Shown here piece after piece: positions 394-9,655 of a stretch of DNA of 46,974 nt. The translations under genes were made by a program, and so were the position numbers. The stretch covers positions 1-46,974 of the forward strand of contig NJBH01000031.1 in NCBI GenBank assembly GCA_005223125.1. Direction: 5' to 3'. The notes under the pieces are model-generated. The model worked only from the letters and a program-made list of their open reading frames with translations. It searched no databases and was not told the DNA's origin. This stretch comes from Promethearchaeota archaeon Loki_b32. GTDB taxonomy: Archaea; Asgardarchaeota; Lokiarchaeia; Sigyniarchaeales; SOKP01. How positions within the stretch are numbered: position 1 is the stretch's first letter; each line of letters starts with the position of its first letter.

Positions 394-630
394 TTACTTT
401 ACAGCTTCAAAATAGATATACCATTGCTCATCGTCATCTATGAAGTCTGTTCCTAAATGTTTGTGTTTTGTTTTTGCTAAATCACGTGGAACAGATTCAC
501 TGGCAGGCTTATAATCTGTTACAACTTTTAAAACTGTACCAGGTCTCATTTTCATGAGCTGTTTTTTGGTTTTTAAAGCAGGAACAGGGCATACTGACCC
601 GCAGACATTTAATTCCATATCAAATTTCAT
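394..630 (-). CDS. tusA: TusA/SirA-family sulfur carrier (last gene of the hdr operon)
   Basis: LNVCGSVCPVPALKTKK carries the CPxP persulfide motif, followed by LKVVTD. 78 aa. Confidence 0.9.
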   Translation of the reverse strand: MKFDMELNVCGSVCPVPALKTKKQLMKMRPGTVLKVVTDYKPASESVPRDLAKTKHKHLGTDFIDDDEQWYIYFEAVK

Positions 631-665: not shown

Positions 666-3134
666 TTAATCACATATTAAAGTAAAAATTGGCTCAACCA
701 TTTCAGGATCAACTTTCATTTCAATTTGCATTAATTGAGCTAGTCGAAGTGCTTCATATCGTACTTTTTTAGGTTCTATATTTAATTGTTTTGCCATATC
801 ACTTATAGTACTTGGTCCTTGAATGGTGATATAATCTAAAACCTTTTGTCTTGGAGTTTTTTCAAAAGTTAAAAGCTCGCGTTTTGATTTAAGATTTATA
901 GCATTATTTATTTCTTCCTCGTTTACTTCTCCTTCTTCAAATAAACCACTATTGATCGCGGCCTCTACAATATTGTTACCTCTATCTGTCCAAACTACTA
1001 CTGTTGTATATCCTTTTTGAGAACCAACTTCACCAGCAGTTAAATCAGAATAAATTGCAGGAAAATCTTGGCAATGAGAACAGAAGTGATTACAACTTAA
1101 ACATCGACGAGCTTCTTGTAACGCTATATCTTCATTAAATATTTGATCAATCTCTTCAAAATTCCATTGAATCTCTTCAGTAGCCCTTTCTAGAGTTTCT
1201 GGTTTTAGAGAATAATCCTTTGGAGGCTTTTTAGGGCCTGTGAAAAACATTTTATCTTGCTTATATCGTCCAGCTATCAAATCTTCTCCTTTTATGTATC
1301 TATCTATGGAGATGGCGGCTTCTTTTCCATGAGCTATTGCAGCAATTGCAACAGCTTTTGAATTGTTAATTATATCACCACCAGCAAACACTCCAGGTAT
1401 ATCAGTTTCAAAAGTCACATCATTTACTTTAATCTTATTTCGCTCTTTTTCTAATATGTTATCAGTAGCGACATCAATTTGATCGAAATCAACAGCTTGA
1501 CCAACCGCAATCACAATAGAATCAACTGGAATTTCATAATCTGAATTTTCAACTTTATTTAAAGGTCGTCTACCACTATCATCTGGTGTTCCCCATTCTG
1601 TTTTGTAACAATGTAACACCAGTTTGTCATCTTTATTCTGAGTAATTTGTGATGTTGAGGTTGTGAAATGATACTCCATGAATTTCATTTCATTCTCTGG
1701 GATTTCTTTTAGTGTTAATTCAAGCTGTTCTTCAGTCATGATGTCAACTAGATGAACCTTTTCAGCACCCAGTCTAAGAGCTGTCTGAGCAACGTCAACC
1801 GCAACCGGACCACCCCCAATAATACTTAAGGTTTTCCCATTGAATTCTTCCTTATTTTCCCAGAAACGATATTTTCTATCCATGAGAAACGTAATAGCGA
1901 CATGAACATTAGGTAAGTCTTCTCCTTCTAAGTGAAGTGTTCGAGGTTTATATTGACCAGTGGCGATGAAAATAGCCTCAAATTCATCATTTTTTAGATC
2001 TTCAATAGTCATTTCAGGTCCTAATGGTTTATTTAGAACTATCTCAACCCCTGAATTTTGAATAGTAGTTACATCATAATCTAATACATAGTTTGGTAAT
2101 CTAAATTGTGGTACACCGAATCGTAGCATCCCTCCGGTTTGGTCTGATTTTTCGAAAATCGTAGGAGCATAGCCCATTTTTGCTAAGAAATATCCTGCAG
2201 TTAATCCTGCGGGTCCAGAGCCTATGATTGCTATCTTTTTAGCATTCTCTTTATTCTTCTTCTTTGATTTTGAAACATTTTTAGCTTGTTCGATTTCCCA
2301 TTCTGTCACAAATTTCTTTAGTTCTCGGATTGCTACGGGATGATCATCTCCAATCAAAGTACAATCATGTTCACATTCATTAGTACAAATTCTTCCACAG
2401 ATAGAAGGAAGTGGATTACTTTCACGGATTAAATCAACAGCGTCTTGATATTGACCTTGCCTAATCAAGGAAATATATCCTTGTGCATTTACACCTGATG
2501 GACAACCACTACAGCAAGGAGAACATACTATACCTTTATCAGTTTGTTCTGTTCGCATATGAGAATTACAAAATAAACCAATTTTTAAGATATCTCTATT
2601 CATTGCTTCCTCCAATTCAGCAGCACCTCTCATCTCACAAGGAACACCAATAATTCCTATGGGTTCGAATGTTTCTCCAACAACTTTTACTAATTTTTCT
2701 AAAACTCCTGAACGGCCGTATACTACTCCAGCCTTTTTTATAACTTCATCTGGATCAGTTACAATGTCTGCTTGAGGTTTCTCATCGACATCTTGGACCA
2801 TAATTATTTCAGCAAGCGATTGATTATCCAATAGATTTTTAGCTAGGGTTGTAACTACACCACCATTAGCAGCTTTTGCCAAAATTTCAGGATTTTTACT
2901 TCTTAAAGAATAAATTGCTTTAGGTTGTTTTTGTATAAACTTTTTCTGGATAACTTGAGGACAACTTTGATAGCATTTTCCGCATTCTTGTCCATTTCTC
3001 TCGAGAATACAATAATCCTTCAATGAAGGGCGTAATACTTCCATCTCTATATGCTTACATGAGCCTACGCATAATCCACAACCTTGACATAACCCAACAT
3101 CAATAATTTCTTTTTTCAATAATTCAAAACTCAT
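666..3134 (-). CDS. Fusion flavoprotein: FrhB/FdhB-like domain split by an inserted GltD/NfnB/SudA-like Fe-S/FAD/NAD(P)H module, plus C-terminal winged HTH
   Basis: N-terminal CxxCxxCxxxC and FrhB motifs GGVVT, GVPCE, IGLFC (aa 1-190). GltD-like CP..VN..GYI, NPLPSICGRIC, IIGSGPAG, GGMLRFGVP, GVFAGGD, EARRCLSC (aa ~204-681). FrhB C-terminal CSHCQDF..SDLTAG..GS..GYTTVVVWTDRG. HTH-like tail GPSTISDMAKQLNIEPKKVRY. Confidence 0.8.
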   Translation of the reverse strand: MSFELLKKEIIDVGLCQGCGLCVGSCKHIEMEVLRPSLKDYCILERNGQECGKCYQSCPQVIQKKFIQKQPKAIYSLRSKNPEILAKAANGGVVTTLAKNLLDNQSLAEIIMVQDVDEKPQADIVTDPDEVIKKAGVVYGRSGVLEKLVKVVGETFEPIGIIGVPCEMRGAAELEEAMNRDILKIGLFCNSHMRTEQTDKGIVCSPCCSGCPSGVNAQGYISLIRQGQYQDAVDLIRESNPLPSICGRICTNECEHDCTLIGDDHPVAIRELKKFVTEWEIEQAKNVSKSKKKNKENAKKIAIIGSGPAGLTAGYFLAKMGYAPTIFEKSDQTGGMLRFGVPQFRLPNYVLDYDVTTIQNSGVEIVLNKPLGPEMTIEDLKNDEFEAIFIATGQYKPRTLHLEGEDLPNVHVAITFLMDRKYRFWENKEEFNGKTLSIIGGGPVAVDVAQTALRLGAEKVHLVDIMTEEQLELTLKEIPENEMKFMEYHFTTSTSQITQNKDDKLVLHCYKTEWGTPDDSGRRPLNKVENSDYEIPVDSIVIAVGQAVDFDQIDVATDNILEKERNKIKVNDVTFETDIPGVFAGGDIINNSKAVAIAAIAHGKEAAISIDRYIKGEDLIAGRYKQDKMFFTGPKKPPKDYSLKPETLERATEEIQWNFEEIDQIFNEDIALQEARRCLSCNHFCSHCQDFPAIYSDLTAGEVGSQKGYTTVVVWTDRGNNIVEAAINSGLFEEGEVNEEEINNAINLKSKRELLTFEKTPRQKVLDYITIQGPSTISDMAKQLNIEPKKVRYEALRLAQLMQIEMKVDPEMVEPIFTLICD

Positions 3135-3136
3135 AT

Positions 3137-4372
3137 TTATCCCTCAATTATCGTAATTTCTTTAATAATACCATTAGGATCTACGGTATATTCAACTGAA
3201 CCGTTCTTATAGTTTCCCTCAACCACATCAAAAACGTGGGTTTTATAATCATCAAATGTGTCATTTTCATTAATTTTTGATTTAAATCCACCAAAGAAGA
3301 TATTAGATAAATTCATATTACCCGCAATTTTTCGTATTTTATTTGTTATTTCTTTATACTGTTTTGGATTTTCATTTTCTAAAGCTTTCTTAAGATCAGT
3401 TTCTAATGTCAATAATTCTTCACGATATTTCTTTGTTCCCTCGCTTATTTCAATTTGATTCGCTTTTTCATATGATTCAATAATTTTTAGCGTTAATGAA
3501 ATTGACTTACTTCCTCCTAATAATCCAGAAATTAATGGCAATTCTTCAATTAATCTTCCTGTAAATACATTTTCTAGTAATGTACCCGAGGATGTTATTC
3601 TTCCTTTAGGCAAACCTGAAGTAGGCAATGTGAATCTAAAGAAATTACCAAGAATATCTGGTAAACTTCTTATTACATCATCTTCTTCATCCCCAAGTTT
3701 ATCGGTAGCACCTTTTTCAGAGTGTTCAGTTGCTACTTCGATATTTCCCATAAGAGTACCAAACATTCCTAACATTCTAATACCAGATCTTTTTACCATC
3801 GGTTTGCAACCTCTGCAAGGTGTGTTGTAGTTGATACATCGTTCTTTACATTCTTTAGCAATAAATCCATTACATAGAAATCCTAAATCATTATAACACG
3901 TTTCGTTATCATCTAATTCAATTTGGCGGTGTACAGAATCTAAATATTCACAAGTTGCACTACGTGCACACACCTCACAGAGAGTTTTCAGTTCTGATGG
4001 TTCATCACCGGTTATCAATGACTTCAATTCCTCAATTTCCCCTAAACAACCATTAACATTTATTTGATTATCAATAAATTCTTTTAAAGGTGTAATTTCA
4101 TAACCATGTTGATTCGCTAATGCGAAAATTCCTCCCATTGTTGTACAATTCCCATAAGCAATAACACGTTCTGAGTTTGTTTTAATTTTTTCTAAATTTT
4201 TCTTATCACTCGGTAATAAATACCCCGTAATTACAGCTACTTCAGTTTTTTCTCCCTTCCAATTTTGTGGTTCACTAATAAATTGTATCTTATTATCAGT
4301 ATCAAGCTTCAGGAGTAAGGTTTCATTAAAACATTTATTACATCCATTAAATTGAAAAATTTTAACATCCAT
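3137..4372 (-). CDS. MvhG-like hydrogenase small subunit fused to a degenerate [NiFe] large-subunit (MvhA-like) remnant
   Basis: Small-subunit motifs GCNKC, AYGNCTTMGGI, NGC, LCEVC, CY..LGFLC.G and C..RC....PCRGC. The C-terminal ~145 aa resemble MvhA segments but contain no Cys. Confidence 0.75.
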   Translation of the reverse strand: MDVKIFQFNGCNKCFNETLLLKLDTDNKIQFISEPQNWKGEKTEVAVITGYLLPSDKKNLEKIKTNSERVIAYGNCTTMGGIFALANQHGYEITPLKEFIDNQINVNGCLGEIEELKSLITGDEPSELKTLCEVCARSATCEYLDSVHRQIELDDNETCYNDLGFLCNGFIAKECKERCINYNTPCRGCKPMVKRSGIRMLGMFGTLMGNIEVATEHSEKGATDKLGDEEDDVIRSLPDILGNFFRFTLPTSGLPKGRITSSGTLLENVFTGRLIEELPLISGLLGGSKSISLTLKIIESYEKANQIEISEGTKKYREELLTLETDLKKALENENPKQYKEITNKIRKIAGNMNLSNIFFGGFKSKINENDTFDDYKTHVFDVVEGNYKNGSVEYTVDPNGIIKEITIIEG

Positions 4373-4820
4373 CTTTTATAGTCCCCTCATCTTTAATTGC
4401 TGTTGATAATCTTTCTATTATATCTTCAAAATCTCCTACTGCAGTTTCACCCTCTGCGGCTCTTGAAGTATACTGGTTTACGAATTGATCACTATATCCT
4501 AATTCTTTAAATAACTTCTTCATAAGTTTAATTCTGTGCATTGAAAGCACATTTCCGTTAAAGAAATGACACGCTCCTAAACAGCATCCAACACAAGCAA
4601 CCGCATCTGCCCCATTATTTAATGCATCCATAATCTGAATAGGACCAATTTGACCAGTACATTGAACTCTGATAATTCTTATCGATGGATCATATCCTAT
4701 TCGCGCAACACCTGCAGTATTGGCAGACCCTTGTCCACATTCATTACACATGAATACAACAACATCCTGAATTTTTTCTTTTATTAATTCATCCGTGATT
4801 TCACATTCGCTCATTCGCAT
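4362..4820 (-). CDS. mvhD: MvhD/FlpD [2Fe-2S] subunit (start probably the second Met, 4814)
   Basis: FMCNEC, IRIIRVQCTG, GADAV..VGC..GACHF.NGN. Overlaps the hdrA stop. Confidence 0.9.
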   Translation of the reverse strand: MRMSECEITDELIKEKIQDVVVFMCNECGQGSANTAGVARIGYDPSIRIIRVQCTGQIGPIQIMDALNNGADAVACVGCCLGACHFFNGNVLSMHRIKLMKKLFKELGYSDQFVNQYTSRAAEGETAVGDFEDIIERLSTAIKDEGTIKDGC

Positions 4821-6841
4821 ACAGCACCTCCGCCAGATACTGCAATAATTTCATCTAATAGTTGATCATCGCTAAAATTAATTAATTGAATTGCTCCTGT
4901 AGGACACACTGGCATACACATGCCACAAGATTTACACGCAATTTCATTTACAACTGGAACACCATTTTCATCAATGTCTATTGCTGCCGGAGCGCATACA
5001 GTTTTACATAATCCACAATTTACGCATAAATCATAATCAATTGAAGGAATTAACATTTCTCTTTCGATATAACCCTTGACTAAAGGAGCTGCAGCTAAAG
5101 CGGCAGCATTTCCTGCATGAGCAACAGTTTCTGAAATATCTTTGGGACCCTGAATTGCTCCTGCTAAGAAAATACCTCCCTTACTACTTAAGGTTGGATT
5201 CATTTTAATGTGAAATTCTTTTAGAAATCCTTCTTTGGATCGTAAAATTTGAAGTTTAGAGCCAAGAGGACCAATACCCTCAGGAGGAACCATAGCAGCA
5301 GAAAGTACAACTAAATCTGCTTTTAGTTTTAAGGGTGTCTGGCTTAATGTATCCTCAACAATTACTCTTAATTCTCCTGAAATTGGATCTTTAATAATCT
5401 CTGATGGTCTTCCTCGTATAAATCTCACTCCAATCTCTTGAGCAGATTTGTAAAGCTCTTCAAAATTCAATCCTGGAGTTCTTATATCTATATAACATAT
5501 AGAAACAACAGTATCAGGGTACATTTCTTTAATAATTCGCGCGTTTTTTATCGCAAATTTACAACAAACACCAGTACAATATTGATTTCCTACTTGATCA
5601 TTTCTACTTCCTACACATTGGATCATAACCACATTTTTTGGGATCTTTCCATCAGAAGGTCGTAAAACTTCACTGTTTGTTAATGAAGTAGGAGATAACA
5701 TTCTCTCTAATTTTAATTGCGTAATGACATCTTCGTATCCTTCTTGACCATAATGATAAGGTTCAATTTCAGCTGGGTTATATTCATCATAACCGACAGC
5801 AACAATAATCGAGCCAACTTTTACAGTCTTAGTCTCAGGTTGCATAGAAAAATCAACGGCTTGGACAGGGCAGACATTAATACAAGTATTACATTCGATA
5901 CAATCTTTCTTATCTCTTACGTATGTAGCGGGTATTGCCTGTGGATACGCTTTATAGATTGCATTTCTCATAGACATTCCCATATCCCATTCATTTGGCA
6001 ATTCAACAGGACAATTTGCAGCACAATCTCCACATGAAGTGCAGTTATCTTTAACATATCTAGGCTTTATTTCAATTTCAACTTCAAAATTTCCTAAAGA
6101 TCCTTCAATGTTTTTAATTTGAGCATTTGTATATAGTTCTATTAAATTATGATTCGCTACTCCATTCGTGAGAGGTGAAATTGAACATTGCGGACATTCT
6201 AATGTTGGAAATGTTTTATTTAATCGTGTCATATGACCCCCTATAGTAGATTCTTTTTCTACTAAATATACGGGAATCCCTAATTCAGCCATATCAAAAG
6301 CTGATCGGAGTCCCGCAATTCCAGCTCCGATAACTAAAGCTGCTTTTGTTGTCGGAATCCTTCTAGTTTCAACATCTTCCAACTTTCTTGCTCGATTAAC
6401 ACCTGCTTCAACTAATCTCATAGCTTTCTGAGTTGCTTTTTCTTTTTCTTTTTGGTGAACCCAACTATCATATTCTCTCACATTGACTTGTTGGTGGCGA
6501 TGTTTATTTAATCCAACTTCTTCAATTGCTCTTGCAAAAGTTTTACCATGTTGATTTTTAGAACATGATGCAACCACCGTTCTGTTAACGCCTAATTCCT
6601 TGATAGAATCCTTAACCATTTGAACTCCTGGTTTTGAACACATGAACATATAATGCTCAGCCTTAATAACATTAGGTAACGTTTTAGCATACTTAGCAAC
6701 TTCAGCCACATCGACAGTTCCAGCTATATTATGACCACAGTGACAAACAAACACACCAATTCTAGGTTCTTCAGAATCTTCAGCTATTGCCACACCCTCA
6801 ACTTCTTCTGTTTCTTTTATTTTATTATCTTTAGCTGCCAT
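4811..6841 (-). CDS. hdrA: Heterodisulfide reductase subunit A (FAD, electron-bifurcating type)
   Basis: IGVFVCHCG.NIAGTVDV, IGAGIAG, KTFPTLECPQC, inserted and C-terminal 2x[4Fe-4S] domains, IQCVGSR...YCTGVCC, GIFLAG..QGPKDI. Confidence 0.95.
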   Translation of the reverse strand: MAAKDNKIKETEEVEGVAIAEDSEEPRIGVFVCHCGHNIAGTVDVAEVAKYAKTLPNVIKAEHYMFMCSKPGVQMVKDSIKELGVNRTVVASCSKNQHGKTFARAIEEVGLNKHRHQQVNVREYDSWVHQKEKEKATQKAMRLVEAGVNRARKLEDVETRRIPTTKAALVIGAGIAGLRSAFDMAELGIPVYLVEKESTIGGHMTRLNKTFPTLECPQCSISPLTNGVANHNLIELYTNAQIKNIEGSLGNFEVEIEIKPRYVKDNCTSCGDCAANCPVELPNEWDMGMSMRNAIYKAYPQAIPATYVRDKKDCIECNTCINVCPVQAVDFSMQPETKTVKVGSIIVAVGYDEYNPAEIEPYHYGQEGYEDVITQLKLERMLSPTSLTNSEVLRPSDGKIPKNVVMIQCVGSRNDQVGNQYCTGVCCKFAIKNARIIKEMYPDTVVSICYIDIRTPGLNFEELYKSAQEIGVRFIRGRPSEIIKDPISGELRVIVEDTLSQTPLKLKADLVVLSAAMVPPEGIGPLGSKLQILRSKEGFLKEFHIKMNPTLSSKGGIFLAGAIQGPKDISETVAHAGNAAALAAAPLVKGYIEREMLIPSIDYDLCVNCGLCKTVCAPAAIDIDENGVPVVNEIACKSCGMCMPVCPTGAIQLINFSDDQLLDEIIAVSGGGAVCE

Positions 6842-7762
6842 TTAAATTGCTTCCTCTCCCTCTTTTTTCATTTCTTCTCCCCCAAAAATATAATTCTTGC
6901 CCATTAATTGATATTGGAGACCAACAAATTCTTGATCCATTCCCATACAATAGGCAGTTAATTGAGAAAGATGAATTACAGGATAATCGTAATTACAATT
7001 CTTATTTTTATTCAAATAATCTTGCCCAGTTTCATATTGTAAATGACAAAACGGACAAATATCTAATATAAAATCGGGTTTTACTTCATCAATATTTTTC
7101 ATTTTTTCAGCAAATATAGTCATACTTGCGTTTCCATCATAAGCTTTAACCCCTCCTCCAGCACCGCAGCAAGTAAGTTGTTCTTTAAATCTAACTGATT
7201 CTATTCCTAAAACTTCAACAAATTCCTCTACAATTGTTGGTCCTTCTGAACTTTCAATCTCTCTAATCCTTGTTGGTTTCAGAAAATGACAACCGTAATG
7301 AACAGCAGCTTTAGCATTTACCTTTCGAACGAGATGATCTTCAATACCCCATGGTCCAACCTCGTATCCTAAGACTTCTGCAATATGTCTTACATCTATG
7401 GAGCCCTTAAACTCATAATCTCCGATCAGTTTCAGCCTTTCATTTACCAAATCCCGATGTTCTTCACTCTCCTTTAAGTGTTTATTAACTTCTTGGAGTG
7501 TACCAAAACACCCATTACAAACAGTTAAAATATCAGCATCTAACTGTTCTGCTATACAAAGATTTCTTGCTGCTGCTACCATCCAATCAACTTTATTAAA
7601 TGAACGGAATACTCCTGGAGCAGGACAACATGTTGCTCTTTCCATATCTAAAAGTTCATAACCTAGTTTTCCCATTACAAATTTTGTTGATTTTTCAATA
7701 GCAGGATACCGATTTGGCATCAAACAACCCAAAAAGAAAGCAAATGTGTTTTCTTTAGTCAT
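6842..7762 (-). CDS. hdrB: Heterodisulfide reductase subunit B (two CCG domains)
   Basis: FLGC, TCCPAPG, VCNGC, HYGCH, TCCGAGGG, ICPFCHLQY. Confidence 0.95.
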   Translation of the reverse strand: MTKENTFAFFLGCLMPNRYPAIEKSTKFVMGKLGYELLDMERATCCPAPGVFRSFNKVDWMVAAARNLCIAEQLDADILTVCNGCFGTLQEVNKHLKESEEHRDLVNERLKLIGDYEFKGSIDVRHIAEVLGYEVGPWGIEDHLVRKVNAKAAVHYGCHFLKPTRIREIESSEGPTIVEEFVEVLGIESVRFKEQLTCCGAGGGVKAYDGNASMTIFAEKMKNIDEVKPDFILDICPFCHLQYETGQDYLNKNKNCNYDYPVIHLSQLTAYCMGMDQEFVGLQYQLMGKNYIFGGEEMKKEGEEAI

Positions 7763-7765
7763 TTT

Positions 7766-8323
7766 TTACGCATCCTCTTCTTCTTTCTTTTCCTCTTTAA
7801 CTGGAGGTAAATCAAACATATGTTCTTCAATATTTTTCAAATCTTTATCATCCCCCTCCTGTTTAAATTTAAACGCAGTAGGGGGTAATTCTTCTAATCC
7901 TAATTCGACTCTTCGTTTTTTAATTTCATCATTTATTGGTACGGCATGTCCAAAGTTCTTCAAATACCCTACAACAGCCCTATGATTAGGAGAAATATTT
8001 CCTAATTTAGTAGCATAATTTCTTAACTCCATGATTACATCTGTAGGTCTCACATCACGCGGACACCGTTCATAACACTGATAACATGTAGTACATAACC
8101 ATATATCAGGATCCTTTAAAACCGATAAATCTCCTAACACAACTTTTCTAATTATTAAACGAGTCTTTAAAGCAGTCCATCTACCACTTTCACAGCTTGC
8201 TGTACATGTTCCACATTGGATGCACTGCCAAATATTTGATTTTCTCTCAATATTTTTGAAAAAATCTTTATCAAAATCTTCGTCTGTTTTAAACTCCCTT
8301 GATTCTTCTTCTACATCAGACGT
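7766..8323 (-). CDS. hdrC: Heterodisulfide reductase subunit C, apparently ACG-initiated (185 aa)
   Basis: The frame extends upstream of the ORF-track start to include the first cluster motif CIQCGTCTASC. The second motif is WLCTTCYQCYERCPRDV. The frame is closed by TGA-TGA-TAA just before ACG at 8323, which follows GGTGA. Confidence 0.9.
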   Translation of the reverse strand, partial: TSDVEEESREFKTDEDFDKDFFKNIERKSNIWQCIQCGTCTASCESGRWTALKTRLIIRKVVLGDLSVLKDPDIWLCTTCYQCYERCPRDVRPTDVIMELRNYATKLGNISPNHRAVVGYLKNFGHAVPINDEIKKRRVELGLEELPPTAFKFKQEGDDKDLKNIEEHMFDLPPVKEEKKEEEDA

Positions 8324-8383: not shown

Positions 8384-8806
8384 TTATAAGGAGACTATTC
8401 TGCCTCCATTGCTCATTTCTAAAAATGAAGCAGCTCCAACAGGATCTTCAGCAAAATCGAGTATATTTTCATGCTTAATTCCCATTAAATCCATTGTCAT
8501 TTGACATGGAAATAATTTTAAATTACCACTTTCGACACCGTCCTTAATTAAAGCCCATGGATCTTCAATACCAAACTTTTTCATCCTTTTTCTAAATATT
8601 TTTGCTCCCATACCTTTCATAGGAGTAGGCATGCCAGCAACTTTTGGTTTAAACTTTCTTGTTAATAGGTTCAAACCCCAAAAAGTAAAGAAAAAGTTCA
8701 TCTTCATATCCATAGCGTCCCCTGTTGAACCAAGGATAGCCATCATCGCAAACTTCTCGAATGATTTATCCTTTACAATAAAATTTATTGTTTCAGTTTC
8801 AGCCAC
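8384..8806 (-). CDS. DsrE2/DrsE-family sulfurtransferase (peroxiredoxin-like fold)
   Basis: FFFTFWGL, FPCQMTMDLMG (conserved Cys) and GAASFL. Likely GTG start at 8806 after AGGTGG. Confidence 0.85.
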   Translation of the reverse strand: MAETETINFIVKDKSFEKFAMMAILGSTGDAMDMKMNFFFTFWGLNLLTRKFKPKVAGMPTPMKGMGAKIFRKRMKKFGIEDPWALIKDGVESGNLKLFPCQMTMDLMGIKHENILDFAEDPVGAASFLEMSNGGRIVSL

Positions 8807-8928
8807 ATATACCACCTTTTTTTGTTTGTTTTTTTTTGGAAATTTCCTTTATTTTGTTTAATACTAAACTTTTTCTGGTTTTAACCAGATTTTATTTAAA
8901 AATTTTTTGATTAAATTTTTTTATTCCA

Positions 8929-9270
8929 CTACATCCATGATATAACTTTTGGTGTAGCATCAATAACATCTATAAGATCATCATATTCTATTGATTTAAT
9001 TTTGTCAGCTATATATTCTGGAGCTATCCCGCGAGCCTTCAAATCTGATTTCAATGCAAATACAACCACATCTAAGCTAAGGAGTTCTTCCATTTGTTTT
9101 GGTATTTTTCCCTTTGTTGATATACCAATTACACCATCGTGAATCAAGACTAATCCAAGTTTCGTGTTCTTTTTAATCTGACTTTTTAAAATTGGTAATA
9201 ATCTCTGCAATTGATTCCCTGTTAACCCACTAAATCCAAACAAATATATAATATCAAGATTTTCTGTCAT
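8929..9270 (-). CDS. DsrH/TusB-like sulfur relay subunit
   Basis: LIHDGV, FALKSDLKARGI and IEYDDLIDVI..TPKVISW. Third gene of an E-F-H triad. Confidence 0.8.
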   Translation of the reverse strand: MTENLDIIYLFGFSGLTGNQLQRLLPILKSQIKKNTKLGLVLIHDGVIGISTKGKIPKQMEELLSLDVVVFALKSDLKARGIAPEYIADKIKSIEYDDLIDVIDATPKVISWM

Positions 9271-9286
9271 ACTTTTTTATCCTTCC

Positions 9287-9655
9287 TTAAAATCTAAAAG
9301 ATGTATCGGCTTGAGCAATCAAATCTGTTAAATCATCATAATCAATGATTTTCAGGTTCTCATACTCAATCAAATCATCTTTTGTTAATCCTGCCTCAGT
9401 TAAAGCTGATTCAATAAGAAATACTTCCAAATCAGACAGATCCGCCATCTCTAATACTTCTGCTAAAGGATCCATCCCTACAGCTTCAGGATCACAATAT
9501 TTACTAAATAGATACACAGCATCTCCCGTGAATACAATCTTACAATCTATAAATTCTCCAAGGGCAGTGAATCCTGAACCGATCCTTATTGCTTCACCTG
9601 CCGAATTTCTTCCAATAGGCGATTGGTCACTTATTATTACTACAGATTCCACCAT
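9287..9655 (-). CDS. DsrF/TusC-like sulfur relay subunit
   Basis: SPIG...AGEAIR, VFTGDAVY and SALTEAGL. ATG at 9655 follows GGAGGT. Confidence 0.8.
   Translation of the reverse strand: MVESVVIISDQSPIGRNSAGEAIRIGSGFTALGEFIDCKIVFTGDAVYLFSKYCDPEAVGMDPLAEVLEMADLSDLEVFLIESALTEAGLTKDDLIEYENLKIIDYDDLTDLIAQADTSFRF

Follow-up and report, generated by a model that had tools for sequence, protein, structure and literature searches.

The window analyzed here is the whole 46,974-nt stretch of contig NJBH01000031.1 from Promethearchaeota archaeon Loki_b32 (assembly GCA_005223125.1). Close to its first position, an operon on the minus strand encodes HdrC, HdrB, HdrA and MvhD, followed by a fusion protein, an FrhB-like flavoprotein and a TusA sulfur carrier, with DsrE-family genes and a second tusA lying upstream (Table 1). 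The fusion gene is an intact hydrogenase iron-sulfur subunit joined to a shrunken, metal-free relic of the H2-splitting subunit.

Table 1. Genes and protein segments of the fusion operon, with positions in the window
Feature	Position	Strand	Basis
TusA sulfur carrier (CPxP)	394..630	-	Pfam, E 7.9e-18
FrhB-like flavoprotein: N-terminal ferredoxin, GltD/NfnB-like insert, winged-helix tail	666..3134	-	Pfam; conserved position
MvhG::large-subunit-relic fusion gene, 411 aa	3137..4372	-	ORF; homologues; structure model
Relic of group 3 [NiFe] large subunit, aa 260-411, no Cys	3137..3595	-	Profile and structure matches
Segment 3, aa 381-409: three-stranded sheet	3146..3232	-	Model strands; hhalign
Segment 2, aa 346-369: GGxxxHP...GG equivalent without His	3266..3337	-	HMMER and hhalign
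Segment 1, aa 265-327: L1 helices and following long helix	3392..3580	-	Ungapped; hhalign 95-96%
Dead L1 motif LLGGSK, aa 284-289, for RxCGxC	3506..3523	-	Alignment register
MvhG-type small-subunit domain, aa 1-259, 12 Cys for three [4Fe-4S] clusters	3596..4372	-	PDB sequence and fold match
MvhD	4362..4820	-	Pfam FlpD, E 1.2e-31
HdrA	4811..6841	-	FAD and Fer4 families; 37-42% to the genome's other HdrA copies
HdrB, both CCG motif sets	6842..7762	-	Pfam CCG; motifs
HdrC, start ACG	7766..8323	-	ACG where relatives have ATG/GTG
DsrE2-like, DsrH, two DsrE/F-family genes, second TusA	8384..10312	-	Pfam; upstream, same direction

The gene order hdrC-hdrB-hdrA-mvhD-fusion-frhB-like was found in 43 loci, some of them near duplicates, as far as their contigs reach. 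The FrhB-like gene directly follows the fusion in every locus that extends far enough, it is followed by tusA in 34 of the 37 loci long enough to show it, and DsrE-family genes usually lie beside the operon. No large-subunit gene (mvhA) was present in any of the 43 fusion loci. The ACG start of hdrC (8321-8323, minus strand) stands after the same Shine-Dalgarno-like run in eight loci; other hdrC relatives have ATG or GTG at this place, and some appear to use ATA. A gene for an Lrp/AsnC regulator (10544-11050, plus strand) is transcribed divergently to the operon in most Lokiarchaeia and lies inside it in Promethearchaeum syntrophicum, Ca. Lokiarchaeum ossiferum and Ca. Harpocratesius.

The FrhB-like flavoprotein is the candidate electron-input module, and its architecture differs between lineages. 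The GltD/NfnB-like insert occurs in most Lokiarchaeia and is absent from one locus (L011:11239-12381), as well as from the FrhB of Methermicoccus shengliensis. The Methermicoccaceae proteins retain the middle sheet, which in FrhB lines the F420 pocket (PMC3591093), and this sheet is missing in Thorarchaeia (L057-L063, L111). In Ca. Harpocratesius repetitus (L064:8865-9293, minus strand), the gene is still in the operon and is cut to 142 aa, with the N-terminal ferredoxin joined straight to the winged-helix tail and no flavin domain. Given this variation of the partner in Thorarchaeia and Ca. Harpocratesius, no single electron donor can be named. The winged-helix tail (666-860 in the window) is common to Lokiarchaeia, Thorarchaeia and Methermicoccaceae. 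A 55% identical paralogue of the GltD/NfnB-like insert (in the gene at 666-3134, minus strand) is encoded on contig C50 of the same genome, and at another locus (L069:1647-4090, minus strand) tusA is followed by a second, split copy of an FrhB::GltD gene.

The open reading frame of the fusion gene, as well as the sequences quoted from it in the initial annotation, were all present at the expected positions; the remnant had been placed there from position 3580, which is the first base of L265, and the quoted stretch runs from this residue to the stop codon. We identified 360 homologues of the fusion, named as Promethearchaeota and other Asgard archaea, and their length was 409-413 aa throughout the 120 that were listed. 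Pfam covered residues 17-110 of the protein only. The predicted model of the whole fusion (pLDDT 88.5, pTM 0.89) has two domains, and the relic consists of four helices and a terminal three-stranded sheet; an earlier model built from a shallow alignment had a pLDDT of 51. A frameshift or assembly artefact was rejected because in 246 of 254 cases the relic domain follows an MvhG motif in the same frame, and most of the others are fragments at contig ends. Open-access main texts, searched also with orthologue locus tags and accessions, contained no paper describing the fusion.

The first part of the protein (residues 1-259) was compared with solved hydrogenase subunits. A PDB sequence search matched it to the solved MvhG 9sw2_E (E 7.7e-15), and in a structure search its closest fold was 5odc_E (Z 19.4, rmsd 3.2, 241 aligned), followed at lower scores by group 3b (Z 14.1) and FrhG (Z 12.5) subunits. 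The lists from Foldseek and from this structure search were filled by small subunits. The 12 cluster cysteine columns are kept in 48-49 of 49 aligned sequences. The initial annotation had called this domain a normal MvhG, which the 12 cysteines and the fold bear out; the description needs to be amended for a gap of about 32 residues relative to solved MvhG (9sw2_E 104-135 are missing) and for NGCLG in place of PGCPP in Lokiarchaeia. The domain thus has the fold and cysteines of MvhG and is co-encoded with mvhD and hdrA, and the usual pairing with an intact mvhA is absent. The common database label, FrhG, was rejected, since the cysteine spacing is of the MvhG type and the protein lacks the C-terminal ferredoxin domain with two CxxCxxCxxxC motifs that characterizes FrhG (PMC3591093). 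An insertion at residues 210-231 (3680-3745, minus strand), with T223, D224, L226 and D231 invariant, has no counterpart in solved MvhG and may replace contacts lost with the large subunit. A tree built from the small-subunit part unites all fusions in a single clade (100/100), which splits into branches for Lokiarchaeia, Thorarchaeia and Methermicoccaceae; the tree did not put this clade within group 3c or group 3b.

Detection of the second part (residues 260-411) depended on the depth of the alignment. As a single sequence, searched against Pfam, NCBIfam and the sequences of the PDB, it matched no hydrogenase family, and a shallow profile of 50 sequences matched no hydrogenase in PDB. Against 1.84 billion proteins, this profile of close relatives found members of the family, plus a few matches that were repeat-rich or fragments, with no large subunit among them; in 400 genomes, it picked one true large subunit (E 2.8e-4). 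A feature search in ESM Atlas gave nickel-hydrogenase clusters at 0.88, which is below its threshold and serves as a lead only. We then used an alignment of 38 sequences (A4), in which divergent members from other Lokiarchaeia, Thorarchaeia and Methermicoccaceae were added to the close relatives. Its profile, run against 177,635 PDB sequences, placed FrhA of Methanosarcina barkeri on top (E 5e-5), and the top twelve also included MvhA and six other large subunits of group 3 (sulfhydrogenase alpha, FrhA, HyhL, HydL), all large-subunit matches falling on the L1 region. Comparison by hhalign with 31 Asgard group 3 large subunits gave a probability of 96.2% (E 2e-9) over 105 columns, the reversed profile reached 1.3%, and none of 60 column-shuffled profiles exceeded 2.6%. 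The frhA, HydA and VhuA models weakly matched 9, 6 and 5 of the 38 fusion members, respectively. In the structure search with the whole-chain model against 48,161 chains, five chains of large-subunit fold were listed after the small subunits. They comprised FrhA (6qgt_A; Z 10.5, rmsd 6.3, 166 aligned, in a range that includes stray N-terminal residues), two NuoD-type proteins, MBS subunit L and HyhL, the latter four with Z 8.6-9.3. As these Z scores are moderate and come from the whole chain, the structure matches corroborate, rather than prove, a large-subunit fold. The profile comparison, which the initial annotation had named as a check on its reading of residues 260-411, thus found the predicted similarity, and confirmed that these residues descend from a group 3 [NiFe]-hydrogenase large subunit. 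The relic scores alike against groups 3a, 3b and 3c. The order mvhDGA is established in methanogens. The order mvhD-G-relic matches it and the partner is of the MvhG type, so MvhA, rather than another group 3 subunit, is favoured as the donor.

Three segments of the large subunit are retained in their original order. Segment 1 aligns without gaps to large-subunit residues about 40-102. In this register, the nickel-binding RxCGxC motif of L1 is lost, as previously noted, and it is replaced by LLGGSK (L284-K289), one residue off from the GLLGGS that had been proposed; G287 corresponds to the invariant Gly of CGxC, and orthologues from Methermicoccaceae keep the L1 Arg (SRVFG). Segment 2, which matches GGxxxHP...GG and had been overlooked in the initial annotation, is the second HMMER stretch on FrhA (144-176) and falls within the 105-column hhalign match, being not significant alone. 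Segment 3, weak when taken alone, is matched by hhalign at 48% to the C-terminal sheet and at 1% to the N-terminal sheet of the large subunit, with the EAPRG loop trimmed relative to the former; 188 of 254 tails score better against the C-terminal sheet, a modest preference. About 210 residues between segments 2 and 3 are deleted, together with the N-terminal sheet and the L2 end, so that about two thirds of the large-subunit chain is lost. On MvhA, the relic aligns to residues about 40-178 and 388-403. Invariant positions in the relic are R273, E277, G287, E302, R317, G351, S356, G362 and G401.

All catalytic sequence features of the large subunit that were examined are gone from the relic. 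The earlier observations that residues 260-411 contain no cysteine and that the protein stops before L2 both hold: the last cysteine of the protein is C189, and no DPCxxC is found in the tail. This loss is conserved. Among 254 distinct full-length orthologous domains, none has RxCGxC, both L1 cysteines or DPC, and the chain ends at the sheet; 205 are entirely devoid of cysteine, and their lengths cluster at 150-160 aa. The proton-gate Glu motif RxEGH, the canopy Arg motif EAPRG and the proximal-cluster His were all absent from alignments A3 and A4. A split C-terminal L2 peptide was not found next to the fusion, where the next gene is FrhB-like. Since each of these catalytic features is missing, the fusion is, judged from sequence, not a hydrogenase. 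The median dN/dS is 0.13 for the relic and 0.12 for the MvhG part (297 gene pairs, not independent). This purifying selection and the constant length led us to reject a pseudogene, and the relic, judged from sequence, appears to have lost its metal site but not its function.

The fusion is present in 71 of 332 Asgard genomes that are at least 80% complete, including 59 of the 117 genomes of the window's family, and its distribution covers Lokiarchaeia, some Thorarchaeia and Methermicoccaceae. Orthologues occur in the cultured Promethearchaeum syntrophicum (DSAG12_01149) and Ca. Lokiarchaeum ossiferum (NEF87_002001). In M. shengliensis, the neighbours and order of the locus equal Amam_01014-01024 (PMC8630106), which identifies the orthologue by gene order as Amam_01018/BP07_RS03525. 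This gene was annotated as FrhG within 'FrhBG-HdrA2B2C2' (Kurth et al. 2021, PMC8630106). On methanol, its transcript in strain ZC-1 was at about the mean ribosomal-protein level (1.04), the protein was detected in the proteome (30.2 and 28.7), and both M. shengliensis strains are stated to have no hydrogenases (PMC8630106). This expression is the strongest evidence that the fusion protein works without H2. Together with the absence of mvhA from the 43 loci, it sustains the proposal of the initial annotation that H2 input was lost. As a cultured methanogen reported to lack hydrogenases also produces this fusion protein, the electrons of the Hdr complex most likely come from NAD(P)H or F420, not H2.

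These observations suggest the following scenario. A single fusion would have joined mvhG to the mvhA next to it, within an mvhD-G-A series neighbouring hdrCBA, and a subsequent deletion would have removed about two thirds of the large subunit and all nickel ligands. The remnant would persist as a folded, metal-free domain on that side of MvhG which is otherwise buried under the large subunit, where it may shield and stabilize the proximal [4Fe-4S] cluster. The retained segments correspond to the L1 helices and to the segment that carries the His229 equivalent in solved enzymes. In the large subunit this His lies 3-4 Å from the proximal cluster, and in complex I beside N2 (PMC3940037). The cluster-facing His is gone from the relic, and cluster tuning must therefore differ. 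We consider it probable that the relic acts as a structural lid, under which MvhG stays folded with a shielded proximal cluster and can act as a wire between the FrhB-type flavoprotein and MvhD/HdrA. The fusion would then conduct electrons over its three clusters within an HdrABC-MvhD complex that does not depend on H2. Electrons would enter at the flavoprotein, putatively from NAD(P)H via the GltD/NfnB-like insert in most Lokiarchaeia and from F420H2 in Methermicoccaceae, and, if they flow in this direction, would pass from MvhG to MvhD, HdrA and HdrB. HdrB keeps its CCG motifs, and the co-encoded TusA/DsrE carriers suggest, in analogy to sHdr systems (PMC11094781), that the sulfur substrate may be a protein-bound persulfide on TusA/DsrE.

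A less probable role for the relic is that of an active adaptor, which docks the FrhB-like flavoprotein (or TusA/DsrE) at the former place of the large subunit and lets electrons enter at the proximal cluster. The invariable position of the FrhB-like gene behind the fusion is consistent with such a role, as are the survival of the ferredoxin and winged-helix ends of the FrhB-like protein after deletion of its flavin core, and the constraint on the relic, which equals that on the cluster-binding domain. The invariant residues of the relic, however, are mostly inherited from the large-subunit fold and require no new partner, and docking is compatible with the lid explanation rather than exclusive of it. 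Complex prediction for the fusion and its FrhB-like partner (L011 pair) scored 0.00 and is evidence neither way. One can go further and tentatively suppose that the relic is a docking platform where flavin modules able to replace one another (F420-type FrhB, NAD(P)H-type GltD insert) feed the old proximal cluster, and that the complex is an electron-bifurcating reductase or oxidase of TusA/DsrE persulfide, not of CoM-S-S-CoB. If true, this would be a soluble group 3 parallel to the transition from hydrogenase to complex I, in cultured Asgard archaea and a cultured methanogen.

The arrangement of the relic is open to a second reading, to which we give somewhat less weight than to the adaptor: a circular permutation that carried the N-terminal sheet to the end of the chain, where it would form the last three strands. 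Such an arrangement is conceivable because the N- and C-terminal sheets of the large subunit repeat each other. The Gly-to-Asp spacing of the turn fits the N-terminal sheet, HMMER put the tail weakly on FrhA 16-30, and a permuted template scored nearly equally (97.65% against 97.82%, both global). Against this, the tail alone favours the C-terminal sheet both by hhalign and in the majority of sequences, and simple deletion needs fewer events. In addition, five structural alignments place model residue 411 at chain positions that we take to fit the C-terminal sheet.

It is much less likely that the complex is still driven by H2, through an intact large subunit encoded elsewhere, with the tail as an accessory. 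The Loki_b32 genome does encode two intact group 3 large subunits and hypD, and an intact group 3 large subunit is also present in all five related genomes checked, but each of the two intact large subunits of Loki_b32 has its own small subunit alongside. Moreover, the segments from which the relic derives lie at the interface in a complete large subunit, and M. shengliensis makes the protein while being reported to lack hydrogenases. Given the intact hydrogenases and hypD, the organism keeps H2, and only the fusion complex gave it up. That the tail is an unrelated helical domain of chance likeness or a decaying pseudogene fragment is highly improbable, since the failure of the single sequence and the shallow profile to find hydrogenases is outweighed by the first ranks of large subunits with the deeper profile, the failing controls, the five large-subunit-fold chains, the purifying selection and the constant length.

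The operon can be compared with known systems. MvhAGD-HdrABC (group 3c; 5ODC, 9SW2) shares HdrA, HdrB, HdrC, MvhD, the three-cluster subunit of MvhG type and the mvhD-G-A order, whereas here the putative MvhA is cut to about 150 aa and fused to MvhG, the Ni ligands, L2, the N-terminal RxEGH and the EAPRG Arg are missing, and an FrhB-like flavoprotein and sulfur carriers are co-encoded. The closest analogue of the fusion is the Elp-Hdr complex. The F420H2 input arm of ElpABC-HdrABC from Methanothermobacter marburgensis has no nickel, and it includes an FdhA homologue that is truncated and lacks the cofactor (Nomura et al. 2025, PMC12350162). This homologue is encoded together with FrhB/FdhB and MvhD homologues, and electrons pass from the FrhB/FdhB-type flavoprotein to the MvhD homologue and Hdr. 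Both systems thus contain a truncated catalytic subunit that lost its metal cofactor. The fusion is nevertheless not an Elp: ElpA derives from the formate dehydrogenase subunit FdhA and is a separate chain, while the relic comes from a [NiFe] large subunit, forms one chain with an MvhG that was kept, and is accompanied by TusA/DsrE genes.

The 'FrhBG-HdrA2B2C2' of M. shengliensis is the same operon with the same order of neighbours, and it is expressed; it was proposed to be a ferredoxin-dependent F420:heterodisulfide oxidoreductase, with the gene called FrhG and the fused relic unmentioned (Kurth et al. 2021, PMC8630106). In complex I NuoD/Nqo4 and MBS subunit L, as is probable for the relic, a large-subunit fold without [NiFe] is packed on a small-subunit homologue; both scored Z 8.9-9.3 in the structure search. 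The initial annotation had drawn a parallel to NuoD, which is a loose one. NuoD and MBS subunit L derive from group 4, have kept their full length and the cluster-facing His, and work in membrane complexes with a new catalytic site, whereas the relic, of about 150 aa, is a group 3 derivative cut to a third, which lost about two thirds of the chain and the His and lies in an operon of soluble proteins; ElpA is closer. The group F hybrid HyhS::HydA (Greening et al. 2024, PMC11216029) likewise joins a group 3 small-subunit domain to a hydrogenase domain in archaea including Lokiarchaeia, but its partner is [FeFe], and HyhL, for which an active site was modelled, is encoded separately, while here the partner is a dead large subunit. 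The sHdr-LbpA system (PMC11094781) resembles the present operon in combining Hdr-type genes with the sulfur transferases TusA and DsrE, and differs from it in that sHdr-LbpA is marked by lipoate-binding proteins and a duplicate hdrC/hdrB set, and the operon described here has a single hdrC and hdrB with mvhD, the fusion and the FrhB-like gene, in anaerobic archaea.

The fusion is real and conserved, and is a new version of the Hdr electron-input arm. Here, for a second time and independently, a [NiFe]-hydrogenase module has lost its metal site and was probably retained for its structure. This time the module belongs to a soluble enzyme of group 3 and is joined to its partner in one chain, and the relic would mark the minimal core of the large subunit that the small subunit needs. 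For annotation, it implies that about a fifth of the Asgard genomes searched carry a gene under the label FrhG, MvhG or NuoB-like that may be mistaken for a hydrogenase component and is predicted to be unable to activate H2. It also offers a handle on the role of the Hdr complex in Asgard archaea, which are not methanogens. The real MvhG of the Loki_b32 genome (L018:66-1379, contig C41) has 437 aa and appears to duplicate its C-terminal two-cluster domain, and the MvhA beside it stops before L2, like the split enzymes of the Vhu type.
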